A stretch of 64,000 bases of DNA from an uncultured Bifidobacterium sp. (GCA_964655115.1 CAZZKM010000001.1:27708-91707), one strand, 5' to 3'. Shown: positions 3,964 through 42,201, numbered from the stretch's first letter. Program-made: numbers and translations. The notes: generated by a model from the sequence alone, not told the origin.

Positions 3964-4632
3964 ATGCCAAATAAAAATCCACCAACAAATACTGGTGTGG
4001 CTGGATTAATTGAATTAATGAATATCCTTCGTTCTCAAGATGGTTGTCCTTGGGATTTAGAACAAACACACCAATCTTTAATTGAATATTTAATTGAAGA
4101 AGCTTATGAATTTGCAGAAGCTGTTGATGAAAACAATAGAGAAGCAATTAAAGAAGAGTTGGGTGATGTTTTATTACAAGTAGTTTTTCATTCAAAGATT
4201 GGGCAAGAACATTCAACTGATCCTTTTGATATAGATGATGTTGCAGAAATTATTAAAAATAAGTTAATCAAAAGACATCCTCATGTGTTTGAAAATGATT
4301 CAAAATTAACCTCAAGTGATGTCAAAGATAATTGGGAAGTAATTAAAAAGAAAGAAAAAAATAGAACCAGTGTCACAGAAGGTTTACCTAAAGCTTTGCC
4401 CGCTTTAATGCATGCAGAAAAATTAATTAACCGAGTTGAAAACTTTGATGAAGACTTAAAGCAAGTAGAAATTATTGATGAAGTAAAACTTGTGGAAAAT
4501 CAGATTACTGATGAGGAAAAAGTCGGACAGTTCCTGTTGTCTTTTGTCGCAAAATGTCACGAAAAAGGAATTGATGCAGAGACCGCTTTAAGAAAAGCTA
4601 TTGCTAATTACAGAAAAGACTTAGAAAGTTAA
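3964..4632 (+). CDS. mazG: MazG nucleoside triphosphate pyrophosphohydrolase
   Basis: GCPWDLEQTHQSL, EEAYE, EELGDVLLQVVFHS and KLIKRHPHVF motifs; syntenic with mfd and eno. Confidence 0.95.
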   Translation: MPNKNPPTNTGVAGLIELMNILRSQDGCPWDLEQTHQSLIEYLIEEAYEFAEAVDENNREAIKEELGDVLLQVVFHSKIGQEHSTDPFDIDDVAEIIKNKLIKRHPHVFENDSKLTSSDVKDNWEVIKKKEKNRTSVTEGLPKALPALMHAEKLINRVENFDEDLKQVEIIDEVKLVENQITDEEKVGQFLLSFVAKCHEKGIDAETALRKAIANYRKDLES

Positions 4633-5481
4633 TTTAATTTCTTGCTTTAATCTTATTTGCGCAGCTGTAACGTGTGGACCCTTTTTAGCTTTATCAGGAA
4701 GTTTAAGTAAAACTCTTCTTATTATTTGTAGAGTCAAGTTAGTGGTGTAATCAACAAACCAAGGACCAGCAAGTGTTGAACCGCGCCAAGAATCTCCATA
4801 CATTTTTCTTACCCATCTTGGTAAAGATGCAAAAGACAAACTTGCCACAATTGCCCACATAAATTGAGACGGAGTTAAGTATCTAAAGAAACCATGCATT
4901 GGGGGAAGAAAAATAAAACGGGCTGCTTCTCTCACTTTTTTATCTGCAACTAAATAAGTTCTTTTATCTTGGTAATACTGCTTTAGTTCTTGAACAGTTG
5001 CAGGACAAATTTTTGGATCTAAACCTATTAATTGCGCAGCAACTAATTGCTCTTTGACATATCTATCTTGATCTTCTTGACTTAATTTCATTCCAGAACG
5101 TAACGCAATATTTAATAGTGAATCAGTAAAACCATTGTGAACCCATAACAGAAGTTCAGGTTGATCAAGATTAAGTGCTCTATGCATCGCTCTAACTTTG
5201 GCAGCAGCTCTATCTGCTTCTTCTTTTGTGCCAAAAGAAATTACACCTATATATTCAGCAGTTCTTAATAATCTGCCAAATGGTTCTTCTCTGTAACGCG
5301 AATGGGCTTGTACTCCGCCAAATGCTTTTGGTTCTAATGCTTGAAGAAATAAAGCTCTAACACCACCAATTACAGCCATGACATCGGCATGAATTTTCCA
5401 AGTAATTGTTCCTGGACCAAAGTAACCTTGATCATTTGAATTTGTATTTGGTTCACCAAAGGTTAATTCGGGTGCAAGCAT
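4621..5481 (-). CDS. MpaB/DUF2236-family (rubber-oxygenase-like) heme oxygenase
   Basis: GYFGPGTITWKIHAD and RLLRTAEY...GTKEEA...VRAMH motifs. Start moved from 5514 to ATG 5481, which lies 7 nt after a TAAATT -10 box. Confidence 0.8.
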   Translation of the reverse strand: MLAPELTFGEPNTNSNDQGYFGPGTITWKIHADVMAVIGGVRALFLQALEPKAFGGVQAHSRYREEPFGRLLRTAEYIGVISFGTKEEADRAAAKVRAMHRALNLDQPELLLWVHNGFTDSLLNIALRSGMKLSQEDQDRYVKEQLVAAQLIGLDPKICPATVQELKQYYQDKRTYLVADKKVREAARFIFLPPMHGFFRYLTPSQFMWAIVASLSFASLPRWVRKMYGDSWRGSTLAGPWFVDYTTNLTLQIIRRVLLKLPDKAKKGPHVTAAQIRLKQEIKLTF

Positions 5482-9436: not shown

Positions 9437-9510
9437 GCCCTCGTAGCCCAATCGGCAGAGGCAGCAGACTTAAAATCTGTCAAGTGTGGGTTCGAGTCCC
9501 ACCGAGGGCA
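9437..9510 (+). tRNA. tRNA-Leu (anticodon UAA), short variable loop, CCA not encoded
   Basis: Acceptor stem GCCCTCG/CGAGGGC plus discriminator A, D-arm GCC-CAATCGGCAGA-GGC, anticodon arm GCAGA-CTTAAAA-TCTGT, T-loop GTTCGAGT. Confidence 0.97.
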
Positions 9511-9736
9511 CAATTTTATAGGTATTGACTTAAAGATATTTTGATCAAAATTCTTCACAAAAATTTTATTCAAATCGAAATGGAAAGTATCTAGACTTTA
9601 AAACAAGAACCAAATAATTAGTCAATTATGAAAATCTTCGTTGAGAAGATATCAAAACCTCTTTTATTTTGCATTGGTTAAGGATACTCTGGGACGGTAG
9701 TAAAAGCCATCTGGTCAGAACTTGAGGTCAAACCAA

Positions 9737-10855
9737 ATGCCAACAGGTTATGTGTGGGAAGAAATCTATGGCTGGCATAACACGGGCAATTCAGCAGGTG
9801 CTGCTCCGGCTGGATTGAATGCTCAACCATATCAACATTTTGAAAGTGCAGAATCAAAAGTCAGACTTGCAAGTGCTCTTGAAGTATCTGGACTAAGTAA
9901 AAAATTAAAAAAAATTTCCGTTCAACCAGCAAGTGTTGATGATGTCTCTCTTGTTCACGATAAAGAATACGTTGAATTAATTAAACAAAAAAGCGCTTCA
10001 CCATTTGGTGGAGATGCTGGAGATGGATTAAGTCCATTCGGAACAGGTTCTTATGAAATTGCATTATGGGCTGCAGGTGGTGCAATCGCTGCTATGAAAT
10101 CAGTTGTTAGTGGAGAAGTTAATAATGTATACGCGTTGATTCGACCGCCAGGACACCATGCTCGAGTAGAAACTGGAATGGGATTTTGCATATTTGCAAA
10201 TGCGGCAATCGCGATACGTTATGCGCAAAAACATTTGGGCATTAAAAAAGTTGCAGTCTTAGATTGGGATGTTCACCACGGTAATGGAACTCAATCTATT
10301 TTTTATGATGACCCAAATGTCTTAACGATTTCAATTCATCAAGATGGTTTATTTCCACCAAAAAGCGGACTTGTTTCAGAACAAGGTGAGGGTAAAGGTT
10401 TGAATTATGCAATTAATATTCCATTGCCTGCTGGAAGTGGAAATAGTGCTTACTACTTTGCGTTAGAACAAATTGCATTCCCTGCAATAGAAAAATTCAA
10501 ACCAGAAATAATTGTGGTTTGTTGCGGATTTGATGCAGCAATGACTGATCCATTAGGTCGCATGATTGTTACCGCCAATGGATATCGAAAAATGACGGAA
10601 ATGCTAAAAAATGTGGCAGAAAAAGTTTGTGATGGCAAAATTATGATGACTCACGAAGGAGGCTATTCTCCAACGTATGTTCCGTTTTGTGGATTGGCAG
10701 TAATTGAAACTTTGGCAGATGCCCAAACTGAAATGAAAGATGTATTAGCCGAGTTTTGGGATGTTCTTCCAGATCAAAAATTACACGCTTGGCAAGAAAG
10801 TTTGATTAAAGAAATTAAATCAAAAATTAATTTTCTTTCTTCAGGATCGGATTAA
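9737..10855 (+). CDS. Class IIb histone-deacetylase-like amidohydrolase (HDAH/PA3774 type)
   Basis: GYVWEEIYGWHNTG N-terminus, RPPGHHA, GMGFCIF, Zn ligands DWDVHHGNGTQ and GFDA, and EGGYSPTYVPFCGLAVIE. The start is ATG 9737 after a GAGGT SD. Confidence 0.95.
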   Translation: MPTGYVWEEIYGWHNTGNSAGAAPAGLNAQPYQHFESAESKVRLASALEVSGLSKKLKKISVQPASVDDVSLVHDKEYVELIKQKSASPFGGDAGDGLSPFGTGSYEIALWAAGGAIAAMKSVVSGEVNNVYALIRPPGHHARVETGMGFCIFANAAIAIRYAQKHLGIKKVAVLDWDVHHGNGTQSIFYDDPNVLTISIHQDGLFPPKSGLVSEQGEGKGLNYAINIPLPAGSGNSAYYFALEQIAFPAIEKFKPEIIVVCCGFDAAMTDPLGRMIVTANGYRKMTEMLKNVAEKVCDGKIMMTHEGGYSPTYVPFCGLAVIETLADAQTEMKDVLAEFWDVLPDQKLHAWQESLIKEIKSKINFLSSGSD

Positions 10856-10861
10856 ATTTTA

Positions 10862-11716
10862 ATGAGCGCTCAAGTCATTAGAGGTATTTTTGACGTTTTA
10901 AGTCTTAGTTCTGTATTAGTACTTTTAGTAATTGGCATGGCAATAATCGTTGGCATGATGAAAGTCTTTAATATGTGCCAAGGTGAATTAGTTCTATTAG
11001 GAGCTGTCACCGCTTATTTATGTAGTACTTATTTGAATAATTTGTGGATTGGTATTTTATTGGCACCAGTCGTAGTTGGATTTTTTGGATTATTTCTTGA
11101 GCGAACAATAATTCATCGTTTTTATTTGAACCCACAAGGTGCCTTACTAGCAACTTTTGCAATTGGATTAGTTATGCGTGAATCTCTTAGAACAAGGATG
11201 TCAACTCAATCTTCTCCGGTAGATGCCCCAATACAAAGTTCTATAAATATTGGAGGAGCTAATCTACCTATTTGGCGCATGGTAATTATGGTTGTAACAT
11301 TTTTACTAGCCTTTGCAATAGGTTATGTTTTACTTAAAACCAATTTGGGAGTAAAAGTTCGCGCTACTTTAGATAATCCAAATTTAGTTTCGGTATCGGG
11401 AATTTCAACTAAATGGATGTATGCAGGAACTTATGCATTTGGCTCAGCACTTTCAGGTTTTGCTGGAGCAATGATTGTGCCTTTGCAAACACTTTATCCA
11501 AATTTAGGTTATGACAATTTAATTTTGATGTTTATTGCAGTCATGATTGGGGGTTTGGGACAATTTGCTGGCCCTATTGCAGGAGCCGCATTAATCGCTG
11601 TTCCTGGAGCAATAATCGGACAATTCATAAGTCCTGTTAGTGGTCAATTATTAGTCCTATTTCTTGCGATCATTTTTATGAGATTTAGACCCGGTGGAAT
11701 TTTTCAAGGGCGGTGA
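10862..11716 (+). CDS. ABC permease, LivH/UrtB type
   Basis: Hydrophobic multi-TM protein with GMMKVFNMCQGELVLLGA and GVKVRATLDNPNLVSVSGIS motifs. Confidence 0.9.
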   Translation: MSAQVIRGIFDVLSLSSVLVLLVIGMAIIVGMMKVFNMCQGELVLLGAVTAYLCSTYLNNLWIGILLAPVVVGFFGLFLERTIIHRFYLNPQGALLATFAIGLVMRESLRTRMSTQSSPVDAPIQSSINIGGANLPIWRMVIMVVTFLLAFAIGYVLLKTNLGVKVRATLDNPNLVSVSGISTKWMYAGTYAFGSALSGFAGAMIVPLQTLYPNLGYDNLILMFIAVMIGGLGQFAGPIAGAALIAVPGAIIGQFISPVSGQLLVLFLAIIFMRFRPGGIFQGR

Positions 11717-11777
11717 TAGATAGGTTCCTTCGTAGTTTAAAAAAAGTTCGTAATCAAAAGATAATGGAGGGAAAGTT

Positions 11778-12986
11778 ATGAAAAAAGTCAAAATTGTTGG
11801 CTTTAGACGCAAAGCATTATTTGCAACGTCTTTAGTTACAGCGCTGATTCTGACTGCATGTTCACAAACTAGTAGTGAAGAAGCTGCTCCTGCAGAAAGC
11901 ACCGAACCAGTCAAAGTTGGAATTTTAACTGACATGACCGGTGCATTCGGAATTGTTGGAAAATCCAATGAAGCAGTAGCAAAATTCACTATTAATGAAA
12001 TAAATGAAAATGGTGGCGTTCTAGGTCGACAACTAGAAATGGTTTTAGCTGATAGCGCTACAGATGCAGCAATCGCAACACAAGTTGCAAGTCGTTTAGT
12101 AAATAAAGACAAGGTTGCGGTAGTTGTTGGTGGAGTTGCAAGCTTTACTCGTGTAGCAGTTCGCGATGTAATCGCAGATAAAGGCAACACTATTTATATC
12201 TGGCCAGCTTCTTACGAAGGTGGCGAATGTAGTCCAAATGTTTGGAATACAGGATCAGCTCCAAATCAACAAGTAGATCCAACTGTTGAGTACCTACTGT
12301 CTCAAGGAAATAAAACATTTTTCTTGGCAGGTAGCGATTATCTATATCCTCGAAATATCCTTGCTCGCGTCAGACAAGTTGTTGAAGCTGGCGGAGGATC
12401 AATCGTTGGTGAAGAGTATGTGCCACTTGACATGACAGATCCATCAAATCTTGTAAGCAAAGTACTTGCTGCAAAAGCTGATGTGCTGTTCGAAGTTGTA
12501 GTTCTTCCCGGAACTGCACCATTTATTAAAGGTGTGGTTGATGGAGGATTCAAAGGAAAGATTGCAGGAACTCTTTTCGATGAAGGTATTAATCCTCTAA
12601 TCGGAGCTCAAGCAGAAGGCTTGATTGGTGTGCAAGATTTCTACCTTTCAGTAGATGATCCTTTCACTCAATCTCAAGTAGCTAAATTCAATGAGCAATT
12701 CCCAGATGCTGCAGGTTTATTCTCTGCAACATTTAATGCTCCTGCTTGGTATCGCAGTATTTATTTGTGGAAAGCAGCTGTTGAAAAAGCTAATTCCTTT
12801 GATACTGCAGAAGTAAACAAAGCAATGGATTCAGTTTCACTTGAGCAATCAATTGGTGGACCTGTATCTTTCGAACCAGGAACAAAGCACGTTAATTTGC
12901 AAATGTATCTTGGTGAGTCAAAGGCTGATGGTTCAAACGTAGTGTTAAAGAGTTTGGGCAGCATCAAACCTTTGGAGTGTAAATAA
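11778..12986 (+). CDS. Substrate-binding lipoprotein, AmiC/UrtA (amide/urea) PBP1 family
   Basis: Lipobox LILTAC; YEGGECSPNV, TGSAPNQQ and GSDYLYPR match the amide/urea-binding subfamily; GGAGG SD. Confidence 0.88.
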   Translation: MKKVKIVGFRRKALFATSLVTALILTACSQTSSEEAAPAESTEPVKVGILTDMTGAFGIVGKSNEAVAKFTINEINENGGVLGRQLEMVLADSATDAAIATQVASRLVNKDKVAVVVGGVASFTRVAVRDVIADKGNTIYIWPASYEGGECSPNVWNTGSAPNQQVDPTVEYLLSQGNKTFFLAGSDYLYPRNILARVRQVVEAGGGSIVGEEYVPLDMTDPSNLVSKVLAAKADVLFEVVVLPGTAPFIKGVVDGGFKGKIAGTLFDEGINPLIGAQAEGLIGVQDFYLSVDDPFTQSQVAKFNEQFPDAAGLFSATFNAPAWYRSIYLWKAAVEKANSFDTAEVNKAMDSVSLEQSIGGPVSFEPGTKHVNLQMYLGESKADGSNVVLKSLGSIKPLECK

Positions 12987-13004
12987 GTAAGTAAGGATAA
13001 ATAA

Positions 13005-13976
13005 ATTAAGAAGAACAGGGTAAGGATCGGTTTCGGTATTATTTTTGTCGTACCGATCTTTACCCTGTTTCCATATTTATCTGGAGATGATTTTTTACTT
13101 CAAATAATTACCAGAATAATAATTTATGGAATTCTGGTTCTAAGTGTCGAAATGTGCTGGGGGCAAACTGGCATCTTTACTTTTGGCCAAGCAGCATTAT
13201 TTGGTTTAGGCGGTTACACAGTTGGTCTAATTACAAAAAATATTCCAATAACTGATATTGGTTTACTTTTGTTAATAGCCATAATTGTAGGAGCACTTGC
13301 GGGTTTATTAGTTGGAATTTTTTTGTTTTCAGGCAAAAGAGTTGGCGAACTTTATGTAGTTCTAGTTACTTTGGCTATTTCATATATTTGTGAAAGATTA
13401 GCTAATAGTTGGACTGTTCTAGGCTCAGGAAATGGAATTCCAGGAATTCCTTATCCAACAATTTTTGGCATTGAAATAAGTTCTACATTTGGCTTATTTT
13501 TATTAGCCTTTATAGCTTTTTCGCTAATTCTTTTATTATGTATTTATATTGTAAATTCTCAATTTGGCTTAACTATGAATGCAGTTCGAGATGACGAAGA
13601 GCGGGCTGAATTTTTTGGTTACCAAAGATCAAGAATTCAAATAGTTGTGTTTGTTTTTTCAGCAGTTTTAGCCTCTATAGGGGGTGCTTTATTTGCTCTC
13701 ACAGAAAGTTTTGTTTCTTCTGCAATGACTGGTTTAGCACTTTCCACCACAATTGTTTTATGGGTTGTGCTTGGTGGACGAGGCACATTCTTTGGACCAT
13801 TAATTGCACTTGCAGTTCTTCAAGTTGTGAACACAGAAATGCAAGAAGCGCTTCCAAGTTTGTGGCCTATTTTGGTTGGATTAATGTTACTTTTAGCGAT
13901 GATCTTTTTACCTAAAGGATTGATGTCTTTACCATCTGTCATCCGTGAATCTAGACGAAAAAAAGTAGTCAAATGA
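13005..13976 (+). CDS. ABC permease, LivM/UrtC type, with probable ATT start
   Basis: WGQTGIFTFGQAALFGLGGY and MNAVRDDEERAEFFGY motifs. The frame is open from ATT 13005, which lies 7 nt after TAAGGA, and this adds the missing N-terminal TM segments upstream of ATG 13152. The start position is inferred. Confidence 0.8.
   Translation: MKKNRVRIGFGIIFVVPIFTLFPYLSGDDFLLQIITRIIIYGILVLSVEMCWGQTGIFTFGQAALFGLGGYTVGLITKNIPITDIGLLLLIAIIVGALAGLLVGIFLFSGKRVGELYVVLVTLAISYICERLANSWTVLGSGNGIPGIPYPTIFGIEISSTFGLFLLAFIAFSLILLLCIYIVNSQFGLTMNAVRDDEERAEFFGYQRSRIQIVVFVFSAVLASIGGALFALTESFVSSAMTGLALSTTIVLWVVLGGRGTFFGPLIALAVLQVVNTEMQEALPSLWPILVGLMLLLAMIFLPKGLMSLPSVIRESRRKKVVK
13014..13069 (+). other. Long stem-loop after the SBP gene (mRNA stabiliser or attenuator), inside the permease 5' coding region
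   Basis: AACAGGGTAAGGATCGGT (13014-13031) pairs with ACCGATCTTTACCCTGTT (13052-13069): 18 bp including one G-U pair. Confidence 0.8.
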
Positions 13977-14707
13977 AGCTTTTAGAAGTTAATTCTGTAA
14001 CTAAAAAATTTGGTTCCTTGACCGCGGTTTCTAACGCATCAATGTTTGTTGATCAAAAAGAAATAGTTGGTTTAATTGGCCCAAATGGCTCAGGAAAATC
14101 TACACTTTTGCATACTATTTGCGGCAGAAGTTTTGCCACAGATGGAAATATTAAATTAAAAGATTTAGATATCACAAAGCAAGATCCACAATCTAGAGCA
14201 TTGTCTGGAATGGCAATAAAATTTCAATTAGCAAGAATTTATTTAGAAAAAACAGTTAAAGAAAATTTATTAATATCTTTACAAGCTAAACAATCTATTT
14301 GGACTCAATTACGAAGCAAGTCCAGAGAAATTTTCGAAAGTAAAATTGATGAGTTAGCTCATGAGTTTCAATTGTTTGAATATTTAAATGAACCTGCTAA
14401 GTCACTTTCTCACGGTCAACAGCAATGGCTCGAAATTGCCATGGCAATGGCTTCCGATCCAATTTTACTTTTACTTGATGAGCCAACTGCTGGGATGAGC
14501 CCAAAGGAAAGAACCGACACTTCAGTTTTGATAAAAAAAGCTTCACAAAAATGTGGAGTTTTAATTGTTGAACATGATTTAGATTTAATAAAACAAATTT
14601 GCAATCGTATTTATGTATTAAATCAAGGAAACATTATTGCAAGTGGCGCTGCTTCAGAAATTGAAAATAATCCTAAAGTAAAAGAGGTTTATCTAACCCG
14701 TGTCTAA
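13973..14707 (+). CDS. ABC ATP-binding protein, LivG/UrtD type
   Basis: GPNGSGKST, LSHGQQQWLEIAM and LLLDEPTAGMS motifs. Confidence 0.93.
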   Translation: MKLLEVNSVTKKFGSLTAVSNASMFVDQKEIVGLIGPNGSGKSTLLHTICGRSFATDGNIKLKDLDITKQDPQSRALSGMAIKFQLARIYLEKTVKENLLISLQAKQSIWTQLRSKSREIFESKIDELAHEFQLFEYLNEPAKSLSHGQQQWLEIAMAMASDPILLLLDEPTAGMSPKERTDTSVLIKKASQKCGVLIVEHDLDLIKQICNRIYVLNQGNIIASGAASEIENNPKVKEVYLTRV

Positions 14708-15404
14708 TAATTATTTAGAAGTAAAAAATTTATATGCAGGTTATGAAGCTAGCCAAGTTTTGTTTGACGTGTCTGTATCCATTCCAAAAACCGGTATTAC
14801 CGCAATAGTTGGTAGAAATGGTGCTGGAAAATCTACTCTGTTACAAACCATCATGGGATTTATTCAACCCTTGAGTGGAAGCATTATATTTAATGGCATT
14901 GATATAACTAAACATTCCACTTTTAGTAGGAATAAATTAGGTATTGGTTATGTTCCTCAGGATAGACCAGTTTTTTCAGACTTAACAGTAAAAGAGAACT
15001 TAATAATTGGGGCATCTCGATTACCGAAAAATCAGAGATTGAATTTAAATCCAGTATTAGAAATTTTTCCAAAACTTGCTGATCGTTTAGAGCAAAAAGC
15101 TGGAACCATGAGTGGTGGCGAAAGAAAAATGGTGGGAATTGCTCGAGCTTTAATTGCTCAACCGTCTTTAATTGTTATGGATGAACCAACTGAAGGTGTT
15201 TGGCATGGCGTTATTGACGAAATAAAAGATCGATTAATAAATTATAGTAAAGATCACGCGATAATAATTGTTGAACAAAATTTAGATTTTATTACGGCAA
15301 TTTCTACACAAATATTTTTGCTTGAAAGAGGCATTATTTCTCAAAGTGTTTTGACTAATGAAAAAAGCGAAATAGAGAAATTACGTAAAAAACTAACTGT
15401 TTGA
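14700..15404 (+). CDS. ABC ATP-binding protein, LivF/UrtE type
   Basis: GRNGAGKST, MSGGERKMVGIARAL and MDEPTEG motifs. Confidence 0.93.
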   Translation: MSNNYLEVKNLYAGYEASQVLFDVSVSIPKTGITAIVGRNGAGKSTLLQTIMGFIQPLSGSIIFNGIDITKHSTFSRNKLGIGYVPQDRPVFSDLTVKENLIIGASRLPKNQRLNLNPVLEIFPKLADRLEQKAGTMSGGERKMVGIARALIAQPSLIVMDEPTEGVWHGVIDEIKDRLINYSKDHAIIIVEQNLDFITAISTQIFLLERGIISQSVLTNEKSEIEKLRKKLTV

Positions 15405-15566
15405 TTTGCTGATTTAATTATTTCGAGCATAGATTTTGTCCAATTTTAAGAATAAAATAGAGTATTTCCCTAGAAAAATTGCTTTTAGAATTATTAAATT
15501 TTGCTCTGGTTAGATTAATGATTTTTATGTATTATGTTTAAAACCCTACTTTGCGAAAGAGTAAAT

Positions 15567-17288
15567 ATGGCTCAACAACCTTGGGTAGCAAATTATCCAA
15601 AAGGCGTAAGTCCGCAATTGGCACCAACAGATATTTCACATCTTCCAGATTTAATTCGTCGAGCAAGTAGTAATTATTCACAAAGCATTGCATTTACTCA
15701 ATGTATGCCAAATGGTATGAATGGTTCACTTACCTTTAAACAAATAGATGATTTGTCAGATGATTTTGCAGTTTATTTACGTGAAGTTTTGGGTTTAACC
15801 GCTGGAGAACGTGTAGCGGTGCAAATGCCAAATTGTTTAAGTTATCCAATTGTAGCTTTTGGAATTCTAAAAGCTGGGTGCGTGCTAGTAAACACAAATC
15901 CTTTATATACCGCAACCGAAATGATTCACCAATTTTCAGATTCTCAAGCAAAAGTTTTAGTAATAATAGATATGTTTGCTGATCGCTTACCTGAAGTTTT
16001 ACCAAAAACAAAAATTCAAACTGTAGTAACCGTCAAAGTTTCTGAATATTTTCCAACTTTAGCTGGAGGTCTAATTAGATTTGTTCAAAAAGTGGTTCAC
16101 AAATCAATACCAAAAATCACCGTTAAACATACAAAATTTAATCAAACTTTGAGTCAAGGCCATAGTCATACAAAAAGAAGTCAAGTACATGATTATGCAA
16201 AAGAAATTAAAGCCGAATCAATAGCTACTCTTCAATACACCGGTGGAACTACAGGAGTTTCAAAAGGTGCGATGCTGACTCATAAGAATTTGGTCGTAAA
16301 CACTTTGCAGATGATGCAAATGGTAGATAAATTCCTACTAGCCGGTAAAGAAACTATTATTACTGCATTGCCTCTGTATCACATTTTTGCTTTTACAGTT
16401 AATCTTTTAGGTCTTTATCATATGGGTGGACATAATATTTTAATTCCAAATCCAAGACCACCAAGCAATATGAAGAAGGCATTTGAAAACTACAAAATAA
16501 CTTGGGTTTCAGGTGTAAACACTTTGTATAACGCATTATTAAAGGAACCTTGGTTCTTAGAAAATCCACCAAAACATCTAAGTGCATCAGTTGCAGGTGG
16601 AATGTCATTACATCAATCAGTTGCAGATGATTGGCAAAAAGTAACTAATTCTCCATTAGTAGAAGGATTTGGTTTAACTGAATCTTCTCCAGTTCTAACT
16701 TTTAATCCACTTGGTGGAATTGCTAAACCTGGCTCAATTGGAATTCCGATGCCTTCAACAGATATTCGAATCGTTGATGAAAATGGCAAAGAAGTAAAAG
16801 TTGGTGAGTCTGGAGAATTAATTGCTCAAGGTCCACAAATAATGCTTGGTTATTGGAATAACGAAAAAGAAACAGCAAACACCTTAAGAAATGGTTGGCT
16901 ATATACAGGTGACGTTGCGCAAATGGATGATGATGGATATTTCAAAATTGTGGATCGCAAAAAAGACATGATCTTAGTCAGCGGATTCAATGTCTATCCA
17001 AATGAAATCGAAGAAGAAATTGCAAAACTTTCGTCAGTAAAAGAAGTTGGTGTAATTGGGTTGCCAGATGAAAACACTGGTGAAAGAGTTTGCGCTTACA
17101 TTGTGGCAGCAACCGGAACTTTAACTCAGGAAGAAGTTATTGCTCATTGTGAAAAATCTTTAGCAAGATATAAAATACCTAAATCAGTTGTTATTGTTAC
17201 GGAATTGCCTAAGAGTCCTATAGGAAAAATTCTTAGACGTGAGTTGAGAAAAGCTGAAATGAATCAACTCACAAACAAAAATATATAA
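15567..17288 (+). CDS. fadD: Long-chain fatty acid-CoA ligase (FadD type)
   Basis: LQYTGGTTGVSKGAMLTH, ALPLYHIFA, EGFGLTESSP, GWLYTGD, SGFNVYPNEIE and KSPIGKILRR motifs. The likely start is ATG 15567 (MAQQPWVANYPKG). Confidence 0.9.
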   Translation: MAQQPWVANYPKGVSPQLAPTDISHLPDLIRRASSNYSQSIAFTQCMPNGMNGSLTFKQIDDLSDDFAVYLREVLGLTAGERVAVQMPNCLSYPIVAFGILKAGCVLVNTNPLYTATEMIHQFSDSQAKVLVIIDMFADRLPEVLPKTKIQTVVTVKVSEYFPTLAGGLIRFVQKVVHKSIPKITVKHTKFNQTLSQGHSHTKRSQVHDYAKEIKAESIATLQYTGGTTGVSKGAMLTHKNLVVNTLQMMQMVDKFLLAGKETIITALPLYHIFAFTVNLLGLYHMGGHNILIPNPRPPSNMKKAFENYKITWVSGVNTLYNALLKEPWFLENPPKHLSASVAGGMSLHQSVADDWQKVTNSPLVEGFGLTESSPVLTFNPLGGIAKPGSIGIPMPSTDIRIVDENGKEVKVGESGELIAQGPQIMLGYWNNEKETANTLRNGWLYTGDVAQMDDDGYFKIVDRKKDMILVSGFNVYPNEIEEEIAKLSSVKEVGVIGLPDENTGERVCAYIVAATGTLTQEEVIAHCEKSLARYKIPKSVVIVTELPKSPIGKILRRELRKAEMNQLTNKNI

Positions 17289-17393: not shown

Positions 17394-17966
17394 GTGAAAT
17401 TAAAAACCCTCATAATATCTACCTTATCTTTAGTAGTCATTGCTTGTGGCTCAAATGAAAACAGAGGTGCATTTCTTGAAAGTCATGCCACAAATTATTT
17501 AACTCCTAAATGTCCAACTTCTGAAATAGAAACTAAAAACGCTAGAGGAATAATTGCTCCTGCTGTTTTAAAGTGTTTAGGTCATGATCAATTAGTAAAT
17601 TTGGCAGGTATTCAAAGTGATAAACCTATAGTCATTAGTTTTTGGGCTTCCTGGTGCACAATTTGTGCAGATGATGCAATTGCTTTTAATGCAGCATATA
17701 AAAAATTAAGTGGAAAAATTAACTTTTTAGGTATTGCGTATCAAGATAATGAAAAAGATTCTTTGCAAGCTTCTTATAAATGGCAGTTACCTTTTGCAAG
17801 TGTTCAAGATCCAAGAAGTCTATTAAGAGAGTTTTATGGAATTACTGGTTTGCCGATTACTTTATTGGTCGATAAAAACGGCAAATTGATCGAAAGAATC
17901 AATGGACCTATTGGTCAACCTCAAGAATTTATTAATCGATTAAATGAAAAACTAATTTCTTACTAA
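17394..17966 (+). CDS. TlpA/ResA-family thiol-disulfide oxidoreductase lipoprotein
   Basis: Lipobox LVVIAC, FWASWCTIC (CxxC) and YGITGLPITLLVD. GTG start lies 6 nt after TAGGAT. Confidence 0.9.
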   Translation: MKLKTLIISTLSLVVIACGSNENRGAFLESHATNYLTPKCPTSEIETKNARGIIAPAVLKCLGHDQLVNLAGIQSDKPIVISFWASWCTICADDAIAFNAAYKKLSGKINFLGIAYQDNEKDSLQASYKWQLPFASVQDPRSLLREFYGITGLPITLLVDKNGKLIERINGPIGQPQEFINRLNEKLISY

Positions 17967-40461: not shown

Positions 40462-42201
40462 ATGAAGTTAAATTCACGCACCAAATTCGGTGTCGTGGTT
40501 GCAGCTGCTGCATTGCTGTTATCAGCATGTGGTGGTGGAGGTGGAACTTCATCTGGTGGAACTGGAGAAGCAAGTCAAGGCGGAACAATTACTTTCTTGA
40601 CAATTGCAGAACAGTTCAATCACGTTGATCCACAACGTAACTACACAGGTCAAGATCTTGCATTCTTTGGAGGGTTTGTAAACCGTACATTAACTTCGTA
40701 CGCATACGAACAAGGTCCAGCTGGTGCAGAACTTGTAGCTGATATGGCAACAGATACCGGTACAACTACCGATGGTGGAAAGACTTGGTCTTTCACACTT
40801 CGTGATGGTCTTACTTGGGAAGATGGCAGTGAAGTAACTTGCCAAGATGTTGCATACGGAACAAGCCGTGTATTCGCAACCGACATCATCGTTGATGGTC
40901 CAACATATGCAATCTCATATTTGGATATTCCTACAGATGCCGAAGGCAATAGCCAATATCCAGGCCCATACAAAGCAACAGCTGAACAACAAGCTTTGTA
41001 TGACAACGCAGTTTCATGTGATGGCAAAACAATCACTTTCAAGTTGAACAAAGTTGTTGCAGACTTCAACTACACAGTGACATTGCTTGCATTTGCACCA
41101 GTACCAAAAGCTAAAGACACTGGTGAAAAATATGATGACGCTGTTGTTTCAAATGGACCATACAAAATTGAGTCTTATGTAAAAGCTCAAAACATGACAT
41201 TGGTTCGTAACGAAAACTGGAATCCAGACTCAGATCCATTGCGTAAAGCTTACCCAGACAAAATCGTGGTTAACTTTGCACAAGATCAAGCAGTTATTGA
41301 TTCACGTTTGATCGCATCTGCCGGTGATGATGCATTCGCAGTATCACTTGATGGAATTCAAACTGAAAATCTTCAAACAATTTTCGGTGATGACCAATTT
41401 GCAGATCGTCGTGTAAACGAACAAGATCCATATGCAATTTATACCGCTATCAACGTTAAAAAAGTTCCTTGCTTACCTGTAAGAAAAGCAATCTTTTTAG
41501 CACTTGATCGCGAAGCTTTAAGAACTGCTAATGGTGGCGAATATGTAGGTGACTTGGCTGACGGATTTATTTCCCCAACCTTGGCAACTGATTATGCGCC
41601 AAACACTCTTCCTGAAGGTCTACAAGATGCAGGAAATCCAGATGCAGCAAAAGCTGAATTGGAAAAAGCAAAAACTGAATGTCCAGATGTCTACGCAAAA
41701 GCAACTGGTGCAGGTTTAGTTTTTGATCATCCAGATACTCCACAATGGGGCAAGAACGTTGCTGTGTGGATTGAATCTGAAAAAGAAGCAGGAATCGTAA
41801 TCAAATCAAATCCAATTGAGCCTGGTAAGTACTACTCAGTTGTGATGGATACAGCTCTTCAAGGCGACATCAGTCGTTCAGGTTGGGCTGCAGATTGGTT
41901 GAATGCTTCAACAGTTTTGCCAGAACTTTTCGGTGAAGGTGGATTTAACATTTCACAAAACCAAGAAGATCCAGCATTTCCTGCATACAAAGCATTGATG
42001 GATGAAGCATTAGCTACAACCGATCGTGCTGCACAAGCAGAAATCTGGAAGAAAGCAAATCAATATGCACTAGATCAAGTTTGGGCAATTCCAAGCTGGT
42101 TTGGTCGTTCACAAGAATTCCGTGGATCAAAGATCGGCGGAGGTTATTTGTGGTACCCATACGGTTCACATAACTTCTCTGCTCTCTACGTAATTCAGTA
42201 A
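40462..42201 (+). CDS. Oligopeptide ABC substrate-binding lipoprotein (OppA/BldKB-like)
   Basis: Lipobox LLLSAC; HVDPQRNY, TWSFTLRDGLTWEDG and GPYKIESY motifs; GGGAGG SD. Confidence 0.93.
   Translation: MKLNSRTKFGVVVAAAALLLSACGGGGGTSSGGTGEASQGGTITFLTIAEQFNHVDPQRNYTGQDLAFFGGFVNRTLTSYAYEQGPAGAELVADMATDTGTTTDGGKTWSFTLRDGLTWEDGSEVTCQDVAYGTSRVFATDIIVDGPTYAISYLDIPTDAEGNSQYPGPYKATAEQQALYDNAVSCDGKTITFKLNKVVADFNYTVTLLAFAPVPKAKDTGEKYDDAVVSNGPYKIESYVKAQNMTLVRNENWNPDSDPLRKAYPDKIVVNFAQDQAVIDSRLIASAGDDAFAVSLDGIQTENLQTIFGDDQFADRRVNEQDPYAIYTAINVKKVPCLPVRKAIFLALDREALRTANGGEYVGDLADGFISPTLATDYAPNTLPEGLQDAGNPDAAKAELEKAKTECPDVYAKATGAGLVFDHPDTPQWGKNVAVWIESEKEAGIVIKSNPIEPGKYYSVVMDTALQGDISRSGWAADWLNASTVLPELFGEGGFNISQNQEDPAFPAYKALMDEALATTDRAAQAEIWKKANQYALDQVWAIPSWFGRSQEFRGSKIGGGYLWYPYGSHNFSALYVIQ

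Follow-up and report, generated by a model that had tools for sequence, protein, structure and literature searches.

A candidate cassette for N-acetyl amide use: an HdaH-type deacetylase gene paired with an amide-type ABC importer in freshwater actinobacterial DNA

The DNA presented above (CAZZKM010000001.1:27708-91707) is a window of 64,000 nt, and all coordinates refer to it. At 9737-15404 its plus strand carries a cassette of six close-packed open reading frames (ORFs), which encode, in order, a deacetylase, a permease, a substrate-binding protein (SBP), a second permease and two ATPases (Table 1). Domains were assigned with Pfam and NCBIfam profiles. An initial annotation, made from the sequence, had described the locus as an HDAH-type deacetylase at the head of an ATP-binding cassette (ABC) importer for amides. 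The comparisons reported here suggest that the cassette takes up a small N-acetyl amide and deacetylates it in the cytoplasm. Homologous loci or genomes used for comparison are labelled with L-numbers.

The layout is as annotated. ORFs and profile matches agree on six same-strand genes with small gaps or overlaps, and the group lies directly 3' of a tRNA-Leu(taa) gene. The deacetylase frame begins at ATG 9737, as had been proposed, which gives a protein equal in length to P0001, a 99%-identical metagenomic relative. With ATT 13005 as the start of permease 2, which is almost certain, the genes are separated by 6, 61 and 18 nt and then by two overlaps, and the annotated description of the gaps holds. 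This spacing suggests that the six genes are co-transcribed.

Table 1. Features of the cassette and its surroundings in the window.
Feature	Position	Strand	Evidence
tRNA-Leu(taa); 3' end is left edge of variable island	9437-9511	+	ARAGORN, Rfam
AT-rich 225-nt spacer/leader, putative promoter region	9512-9736	+	sequence, upstream comparison
HdaH-type class II HDAC-fold Zn deacetylase, 372 aa	9737-10855	+	PF00850 Hist_deacetyl, E 1.5e-89
ABC permease 1, UrtB/LivH-like	10862-11716	+	PF02653 BPD_transp_2; TIGR03409
Lipoprotein SBP, distinct AmiC/UrtA-like subfamily	11778-12986	+	Peripla_BP_5/6; TIGR03407
ABC permease 2, UrtC/LivM-like, 323 aa, probable ATT start	13005-13976	+	PF02653
RNA hairpin, 18 bp stem	13014-13069	+	inverted repeat, folding, conserved in relatives
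ABC ATPase, UrtD/LivG-like	13973-14707	+	PF00005 + BCA_ABC_TP_C; TIGR03411
ABC ATPase, UrtE/LivF-like	14700-15404	+	PF00005; TIGR03410
FadD-like acyl-CoA ligase	15534-17288	+	AMP-binding domain; NF006523 611 bits vs cut-off 884
Strain-variable insertion (cassette + FadD-like gene), ~7.9 kb	9512-~17400	.	blastn vs L143, L145

The link between enzyme and importer can be followed in other genomes from either side. An enzyme-based scan, limited to one genome per species, gave 80 HdaH loci at 45-88% identity. The six-gene layout is found in the two closest of these (L001 and L002), a Urt-like variant stands beside HdaH in one Mesorhizobium (L076), and LIV-type ABC genes adjoin HdaH in 17 further genomes (Alphaproteobacteria, Chloroflexi and a Bacillus). 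No ABC genes occur in 35 HdaH loci that have at least 5 kb on both sides. Contig look-ups found the exact layout also with enzymes of 75, 74, 64 and 60% identity.

Starting from the SBP, all three homologues looked up on long contigs (56-61% identity) have an HdaH gene directly upstream, and 53 more loci came from scanning metagenomes with an alignment of SBPs. When loci are counted whose SBP is at least 53% identical and which have at least 2.1 kb upstream, an HdaH gene lies within 4 kb in 38 of 38. At these loci (31 with a complete gene) it shares the strand of permease 1 and immediately precedes it, the start of the permease gene lying -15 to +15 nt from the HdaH stop. The loci represent 19, 14, 11 and 5 SBP clusters at 95, 90, 80 and 70% identity, and the identities of SBP and HdaH to their counterparts in the window are closely correlated (Spearman rho 0.98). 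SBPs of 27-31% identity have neither HdaH nor the pocket signature described below. A crude neighbour-joining tree places the window, L001, L002, L081, L086, L082 and L084 in one clade, with the Thermoleophilia-type L087 and L088 outside. Members of the SBP subfamily are thus obligately paired with HdaH, whereas for the enzyme family at large the pairing is facultative. Its conservation in other genomes had been set beforehand as a check, and the 38 loci bear it out; no paper linking HDAH-type enzymes to ABC importers was found in the literature.

Two further arrangements were seen. Some cassettes hold a second, divergent HdaH paralogue of 46-47% identity, which lies divergently upstream in L002 (8705-9802, minus strand); in L096 (4151-5137) it comes next after the final ATPase gene. 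A separate recurrent layout joins HdaH to a general LIV-type importer with a Peripla_BP_6 SBP and with ATPase genes before the permease genes. It is found in Alphaproteobacteria (L012-L014, L017, L023-L025, L028, L030, L051, L052, L062 and L068), Chloroflexi (L019, L022 and L034) and the Bacillus L080, and an omega-aminotransferase or aldehyde dehydrogenase gene is often immediately upstream.

The importer has the composition of the HAAT (LIV/Urt-type) class: two BPD_transp_2 permeases, a LivG-like and a LivF-like ATPase, and a type-I SBP (Pfam). The SBP has an N-terminal signal with an L-T-A-C lipobox at residues 25-28, and its translation contains YEGGEC, GSAPNQQ and GSDY, the AmiC/UrtA-type motifs that had been annotated. 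Its matches in the PDB are 8tg1 (2e-59), UrtA (2e-48) and AmiC (1e-34). For every transporter component the best NCBIfam match is a Urt model, and all scores are under the curated cut-offs: 240.3 bits against 492.75 for the SBP (UrtA, TIGR03407), 191 against 250 for permease 1 (TIGR03409), 155 against 296 for permease 2 (UrtC model; the ATG-truncated form was scored), 244.5 against 304 for the UrtD/LivG-like ATPase (TIGR03411) and 220 against 286 for the UrtE/LivF-like ATPase (TIGR03410).

Nine residues surround the ligand in the UrtA-urea structure, and eight are strictly conserved, namely W120, S122, Y141, Q144, E146, Y190, N246 and S274; urea binding is lost or much reduced when W120, S122, Q144, Y190 or N246 is mutated (PMC10392092). 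Residues were mapped with phmmer alignments to 8HIC and 1PEA, together with MAFFT. At the eight urea positions the window SBP has V, S, W, S, E, Y, no Asn (P244) and T, so that W120 is changed to V, Q144 is changed to S, and N246 is absent (P244 lies in a VVVLPGT segment). The resulting signature, V120 S122 W142 A144 S145 E147 Y188 Y190 P244 T265, is more than 95% conserved among 116 homologues of at least 53% identity. The nearest solved SBP, 8TG1, for which no paper was found, is uninformative as a guide to the new pocket because it keeps all UrtA urea residues.

Since the Urt scores are below the cut-offs and W120, Q144 and N246 are lost, the importer is predicted not to be a urea transporter. 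The clamp for the carbonyl oxygen and one N-H appears to be retained, and the side that serves the other urea nitrogen now appears to be lined with smaller, apolar side chains. These features suggest that the SBP subfamily is a new specificity class in the UrtA/AmiC amide-binding fold.

UrtABCDE of cyanobacteria and other organisms (UrtA structures 8HIC and 7S6E/F) is a close known system, with the same five component types and the architecture of the HAAT class. UrtA is 30-35% identical to the window SBP, and the two have in common Ser122, Glu147 and Tyr188 as well as YEG..EC, APNQQ and GSDY. The differences are the scores below cut-off, the replacement of W120, Y141, Q144 and N246, and the gene order: the SBP gene comes first in the urea system, whereas the window has permease-SBP-permease. 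The partner enzyme is urease in one case and a deacetylase of the histone deacetylase (HDAC) fold in the other. That the locus is an ordinary UrtABCDE urea transporter lying beside an unrelated deacetylase is very improbable. The Urt models do match each component best, JGI labels some homologues 'urea transport system substrate-binding protein', and L082 and L087 have urease-like genes close to the cassette. However, this explanation must contend with the scores below cut-off, with the loss of three urea-binding residues in favour of a conserved replacement signature, and with a window that has no urease and a pairing with HdaH that is obligate.

AmiC, the acetamide sensor of P. aeruginosa (1PEA), has the same fold and clamp, and its Tyr150 and Tyr152 correspond to Tyr188 and Tyr190 of the window SBP. 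At the seven positions of its acetamide pocket (Y83, S85, Y104, T106, P107, Y150 and Y152) the window has V120, S122, W142, A144, S145, Y188 and Y190, so that three of the seven are kept; Y83, T106 and P107 become V, A and S. AmiC alters the same side of the pocket to fit the methyl group of acetamide, and the side chains in the window are smaller still (Y->V, T-P->A-S). Unlike AmiC, a cytoplasmic regulator that works with the ANTAR protein AmiR, the window SBP is a transporter lipoprotein. No ANTAR gene was found among the scanned neighbours, and an AmiC-like + ANTAR pair is seen only in Rhizobium (L150).

Importers with related SBPs are found on rhizobial plasmids, where the place of HdaH is taken by other hydrolases. 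In the Bradyrhizobium plasmid NZ_CP030054, an amidase gene is followed by permease, SBP, permease and two ATPase genes, in the same order as in the window. The Rhizobium plasmid NZ_CP030764 has an AmiC-like + ANTAR pair, a nitrilase-family gene, the importer and an amidase, and the Ancylobacter plasmid NZ_CP083242 has a nitrilase-family gene, the importer and urease. These outgroup SBPs have 31-37% identity. Ser122, Glu147 and Tyr188 are common to all, and positions 120, 142, 144, 145, 190, 244 and 265 vary according to the partner hydrolase. The plasmid cassettes differ from that of the window in having an amidase-signature or nitrilase-family protein in the enzyme slot, and they are themselves uncharacterised. 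Because they exchange enzyme and specificity residues, they support a general rule by which importers of this fold would travel with a C-N hydrolase for their ligand. FmdDEF of Methylophilus is a transporter of short-chain amides and urea. The logic of an amide binder joined to an amide hydrolase is alike in AmiC, FmdDEF and the window; the hydrolase is HdaH here and a nitrilase-superfamily amidase there.

The deacetylase matches solved bacterial HdaH enzymes, K. pneumoniae-type deacetylases included, over their full length with E of about 1e-100. Matches in the PDB include FB188 HDAH (1zz0, 3.7e-103), DmhA (9gkw, 7.6e-100), PA3774 (5g0x, 1.8e-99) and PrpH (9gku, 2.1e-98); the match to APAH (3men, 2.6e-41) is far weaker. 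H140/H141, the Zn ligands D178/H180/D266 and Y310 (numbered from the ATG) are invariant in the alignment and in all groups, as are RPPGHH at 136-141 and EGGY at 307-310. RPPGHH was present in all nine cassette-linked enzymes examined. The assignment to the HDAH/PA3774 type is confirmed by these matches and motifs. No signal peptide is seen, which points to a cytoplasmic enzyme. At the rim, two features mark the cassette-linked clade: GGDAGDGLSPFG, which has two additional residues, and a C-terminal helix of the form D-x-L-A-E-F-W-D.

The cluster 1 HdaH enzymes (Bordetella/Alcaligenes FB188 HDAH, PA3774 and KpHdaH) can be aligned with the window enzyme in full and have identical catalytic residues, RPPGHH and EGGY; the alignment to FB188 HDAH spans residues 7-346 and so takes in the N-terminal L1 region. 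They differ in that no transporter context has been reported for them, and 'ABC transporter' is not mentioned by Graf et al. 2024. In that work RPPxHH and EGGY are tied to a foot pocket sized for acetate rather than for longer acyl groups, and RPAGHH is given for DmhA and PrpH, the small-molecule amidohydrolases of the group (Graf et al. 2024). As the initial annotation had said, the natural substrates of the HDAH/PA3774 class are unsettled in the literature (PMC4784309).

Dimethoate hydrolase (DmhA) and propanil hydrolase (PrpH) belong to the same sub-cluster and are proven small-molecule amidohydrolases, which means that the scaffold is used for catabolism. They differ from the window enzyme in RPAGHH, in hydrophobic L1 and C-helix motifs and in their xenobiotic substrates. 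One may ask whether the cassette is likewise a unit for degrading xenobiotic amides, such as anilides or organophosphate amides. The window enzyme is as close to DmhA and PrpH as to the lysine deacetylases, its L2-region Leu98 fits their GHLAP/GMLAP rather than the GKEAP of KpHdaH (in an offset alignment), and the cassette lies on a mobile island. Its RPPGHH is not the motif of those enzymes, however, an aryl amide is unlikely in a pocket of the AmiC/UrtA type, and the cassette is widespread in pristine-lake plankton and in soil Actinomycetota lineages. A xenobiotic role is therefore hardly to be expected.

HDAC-fold enzymes that serve the catabolism of N-acetylated amines are represented by the acetylpolyamine amidohydrolases (APAH of Mycoplana ramosa, PA0321/PA1409) and HDAC10. 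HDAC10 reportedly has an acidic gatekeeper Glu at the GDP[E]G position; in the window enzyme this position is a Leu (TDPLG motif). P. aeruginosa grows on acetylputrescine and acetylcadaverine by means of the APAHs PA0321 and PA1409, and PA3774 does not cleave these compounds (PMC4784309). The window enzyme is far from APAH (2.6e-41 to 3men compared with about 1e-103 to HDAH). Acetylpolyamine, one of the ligands first proposed, is weakened as a candidate on all three counts.

Clues to the ligand also come from the genes next to HdaH, which were surveyed at about 140 loci. A GSAM/beta-transaminase-like aminotransferase is encoded directly upstream in L081, L086, L112, L114 and L115, an omega-aminotransferase in L012, L018 and L051, and an aldehyde dehydrogenase in L030, L036, L045 and L068. 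L088 has an aminobutyraldehyde dehydrogenase and an oxidase. In the L085 operon a succinic-semialdehyde-dehydrogenase-like gene and an amine oxidoreductase gene accompany HdaH, with an AsnC regulator and an omega-aminotransferase divergent. Lysine catabolism (lat-lrp-pcd-like) was considered for L085 and rejected, since the NCBIfam matches there are instead to an omega-aminotransferase of generic type, to a succinic-semialdehyde-dehydrogenase-like enzyme and to amine oxidoreductases; the neighbourhood points to omega-amine or gamma-aminobutyrate (GABA)-type catabolism rather than specifically to lysine. The recurrence of aminotransferase, aldehyde dehydrogenase and amine oxidase genes suggests that the product is an organic amine that enters amine catabolism. 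Together, the accessory genes would suit a ligand that is an N-acetylated amine or omega-amino acid, the freed amine being transaminated or oxidised afterwards.

The commonest neighbour of HdaH, with or without the importer, is an uncharacterised Amidohydro_3 protein of about 540 aa (L008 11133-12731, L011 7181-8779 and L050 8281-9921; also L084, L086, L089, L105-L108, L111, L113 and L127). Its nearest structures (3icj and 3igh) are unannotated and it matches no NCBIfam family, so that it gives no functional lead. HdaH and Amidohydro_3 may form a two-hydrolase pathway.

These results lead to the following reading, to which we give a probability of about 65%: the locus would be a self-contained cassette by which a small N-acetyl amide is imported and then deacetylated in the cytoplasm. 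The surface lipoprotein would hold the amide by Ser122, Glu147 and Tyr188, which are common to UrtA and AmiC. The side of the UrtA pocket for one urea nitrogen would be remade, by Val120, Trp142, Ala144-Ser145 and Pro244, as a larger apolar cavity, which would capture an R-CO-NH-R' compound instead of urea. Import would be the work of the two LIV/Urt-type permeases with their ATPases, and the HdaH Zn enzyme, with its acetate-sized product pocket, would take off the acetyl group. The products, acetate and a free amine or amino acid, would supply carbon and nitrogen. The direction of flux, the acetyl specificity and the class of ligand are what we infer. Since the acetyl-size motifs (RPPGHH and EGGY) occur together with amine-catabolic neighbours, an N-acetyl amine or amino acid is favoured. 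In rough order, the candidates are N-epsilon-acetyl-lysine or another N-acetyl omega-amino acid, N-acetyl diamines, and small N-alkyl acetamides. The initial annotation, which proposed that the importer feeds an N-acyl amide to the Zn amidohydrolase, is borne out in part: its core, a dedicated non-urea amide importer coupled to HdaH, stands, given the 38 of 38 pairings, the lost urea residues and the amidase or nitrilase cassettes of the outgroup.

A parallel in logic, and in logic only, is the N-acetyltaurine system NaaS/NaaABB'CC' of Cupriavidus necator and Ruegeria pomeroyi. There too, an ABC importer of five components, among them two permeases and two ATPases, is encoded next to an N-acetyl amidohydrolase, which releases an amine that is then transaminated. 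The Naa cluster differs by including a LysR regulator and a metallochaperone.

Several observations count against the proposed uptake and deacetylation of an N-acetyl amide. Pockets of the UrtA/AmiC type are closed and tiny in solved structures, and room for a substituted amide is deduced from side-chain sizes. Urease-like subunits near two cassettes make a urea-derived or related ligand possible: at L082 (6665-9045) a urease alpha-like gene, above the subfamily cut-off and under the equivalog cut-off, and a fused gamma/beta gene lie beside the divergent TetR gene of the cassette, with no accessory genes within 10 kb, and L087 (2015-2960) has fragments of similar genes. In the window, no regulator and no amine-product enzyme adjoins the cassette. 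Promoter and terminator scans gave counts at chance level, so the operon structure is based on spacing. PA3774 is inactive on acetylpolyamines. Finally, FB188 HDAH, PA3774 and KpHdaH efficiently deacetylate lysine in peptides in vitro.

The last of these points, which applies to VsHdaH as well, raises the question of whether HdaH is a regulatory protein lysine deacetylase, for instance of acyl-CoA synthetases such as FadD (compare AcuC/AcsA), whose adjacency to a transporter does not serve substrate supply. An AMP-forming acyl-CoA ligase does lie 3' of the cassette in the window. Yet that gene adjoins the cassette at no other locus, the SBP subfamily was in no case seen without HdaH, with which it co-evolves as a unit, and plain amidases fill the same slot in equivalent cassettes. 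A housekeeping regulator would also not be expected on an island that is missing from sibling genomes. This explanation is distinctly unlikely. FadD was rejected as a partner more generally, whether as a sign of fatty N-acyl amides or as a deacetylation target, because it adjoins no other cassette and because acetyl-sized foot-pocket motifs oppose long acyl chains.

Alternatively, unsubstituted short-chain amides (acetamide, propionamide or formamide-like) might be imported, with HdaH replacing AmiE/FmdA and releasing ammonia and acetate. The nearest matches of the SBP bind urea or acetamide, and their clamp residues are retained in it. It also resembles AmiC in having Tyr at position 190, amidase or nitrilase-family enzymes for simple amides accompany the outgroup SBPs, and the window has no amine-product enzyme. 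On the other hand, the HDAC-fold tunnel is built for an N-substituent, and we know of no member of the fold that acts on primary amides. The changes in the pocket relative to AmiC all go toward smaller residues, suggesting a ligand bigger than acetamide, and the amine-catabolic genes that recur beside HdaH point to an organic amine as the product. Simple amides are thus an unlikely ligand, and an N-acetyl compound is preferred.

Searches of the window with tblastn (E 1e-5) found no homologues of urease, CN-hydrolase/aliphatic amidase, Amidohydro_3, class-III aminotransferase, TetR or LacI. The statement in the initial annotation that urease and aliphatic amidase are missing from the window is correct.

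Permease 2 has an unusual start. Its frame is open from 13005 and has no ATG, GTG or TTG before 13152. ATT 13005 is the first codon after the stop, and an AAGGA site lies 7 nt upstream. The 49 residues encoded 5' of ATG 13152 are conserved in relatives, and ATT 13005 aligns with ATG in L081 and L086, ATC in L001 and ATA in L002. Judged by this ribosome-binding site and the alignment, permease 2 almost certainly starts at ATT 13005 and not at ATG 13152.

The same region encodes a hairpin, which lies 28 nt past the SBP stop and inside the first 22 codons of permease 2 (folding energy -36.7 kcal/mol, z -5.8). Relatives of 35%-72% GC have a hairpin of 17-24 bp at the same place with a different sequence, and compensatory changes are visible; the loci are the window, L001, L090, L095, L100, L118, L081, L086, L082, L084, L088 and L125. 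When synonymous codons were resampled over residues 2-27, stability exceeded the coding need in every relative whose permease is at least 64% identical, with z from -2.9 to -6.0, and also in several more distant relatives; it did not in L087, L121, L123, L127 and L131. The resampling shows that the encoded protein does not account for this stability. The hairpin and the ATT, ATC or ATA starts of low-GC members probably raise the SBP-to-permease ratio, and in the proposed cassette they would hold SBP output far above permease output. Possible routes are protection of the 3' end of the upstream transcript or damped initiation.

Upstream of the deacetylase gene, a 15-nt block, TAGGTATTGACTTAA, lies at 9519-9533 and contains a TTGACT hexamer resembling a -35 element. 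It is common to the 5' edges of the cassettes in the window, L090 (~4830-4850) and L001 (~4055-4075), though the flanking genes differ; L090/L001-type relatives that carry it are 88% identical. The block may be a promoter or operator that travels with the cassette. A promoter-like match at 9641-9670 is not above chance, and Rfam reports only tRNA, with no riboswitch or leader RNA element upstream of the deacetylase gene.

The cassette lies in a variable part of the genome. The alignment of the window with two siblings, L143 (91% nucleotide identity) and L145 (85%), ends at base 9511, exactly where tRNA-Leu ends. In L145 (13946-14048), the tRNA is followed directly by a thioredoxin-like gene, equivalent to the window gene at 17394; the right edge is approximate, and homology with L145 resumes at 17463. 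L143 (13958 onward) has molybdenum-cofactor biosynthesis genes at this site. The region 9512-~17400 is a strain-variable island, and the 3' end of tRNA-Leu(taa) is hypervariable in this Nanopelagicales lineage. No second copy of the tRNA 3' end is found, even with up to 3 mismatches, nor any att repeat, and none of the island genes is an integrase (Pfam, NCBIfam). The FadD-like ligase shares the island with the cassette and is beside it at no other locus.

Other genomes carry the cassette at similar and at different sites: between the same UDG gene and tRNA-Leu in L086, after tRNA-Val in L095 and L098, and between panB and nadE/glnA in L090. The unusual codon usage noted in the annotation is modest and significant. 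GC content at third codon positions (GC3) is 0.21 in the six cassette genes vs 0.17 +/- 0.03 in the other 51 window genes (Mann-Whitney p 0.002), and synonymous-usage likelihood is lower in the cassette genes (p 0.0002). A 579-aa ORF at 40462-42201 has the highest GC (0.42) and GC3 (0.26) of the window genes and deviates more than the cassette.

As for the host, the enolase encoded in the window has 95-97% identity with proteins assigned by name to Candidatus Nanopelagicales, and the window shows the actinobacterial gene order mfd-mazG-eno-ftsB-DUF501-ppx, as in Rv1020-Rv1026 of M. tuberculosis. L001 (CAMATO010000034.1), which carries the cassette's closest relative in the genome collection, bears the title 'MAG: Bifidobacterium breve', a label that looks wrong for DNA of 39% GC from a series of lake samples. 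The acI/Nanopelagicales literature consulted makes no mention of a deacetylase, urea or amide system. The cassette had been proposed to mark the nutrient niche of a streamlined aquatic actinomycete. A freshwater host of the Nanopelagicales type agrees with this, but the cassette is absent from sibling genomes at the same tRNA-Leu site and is therefore an accessory trait rather than a lineage-wide niche marker.

The type of module, an ABC importer with a cognate amidohydrolase, is known; what is new is an HDAC-fold enzyme as the hydrolase. HDAH/PA3774 enzymes are usually treated as protein deacetylases and drug targets, and the question of their substrate has been present since their discovery. 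The chances are about even that HdaH-type 'histone deacetylases' are small-molecule N-acetyl amidases fed by a dedicated amide importer, an unrecognised catabolic route. An SBP that is obligately paired and co-evolving makes the natural substrate of the HdaH class approachable by experiment, and, if the proposed reading is true, the SBP subfamily would be a direct handle for naming the substrate of the HDAH/PA3774 class. Some of the 'branched-chain amino acid transporters' of lake plankton would then really take up N-acetyl compounds. Automatic labels such as 'urea' or 'branched-chain amino acid' transporter and 'acetoin utilisation protein' would be wrong for these genes, and the cassette would enlarge the strain-variable nutrient repertoire of the Nanopelagicales, the most abundant freshwater bacterioplankton.

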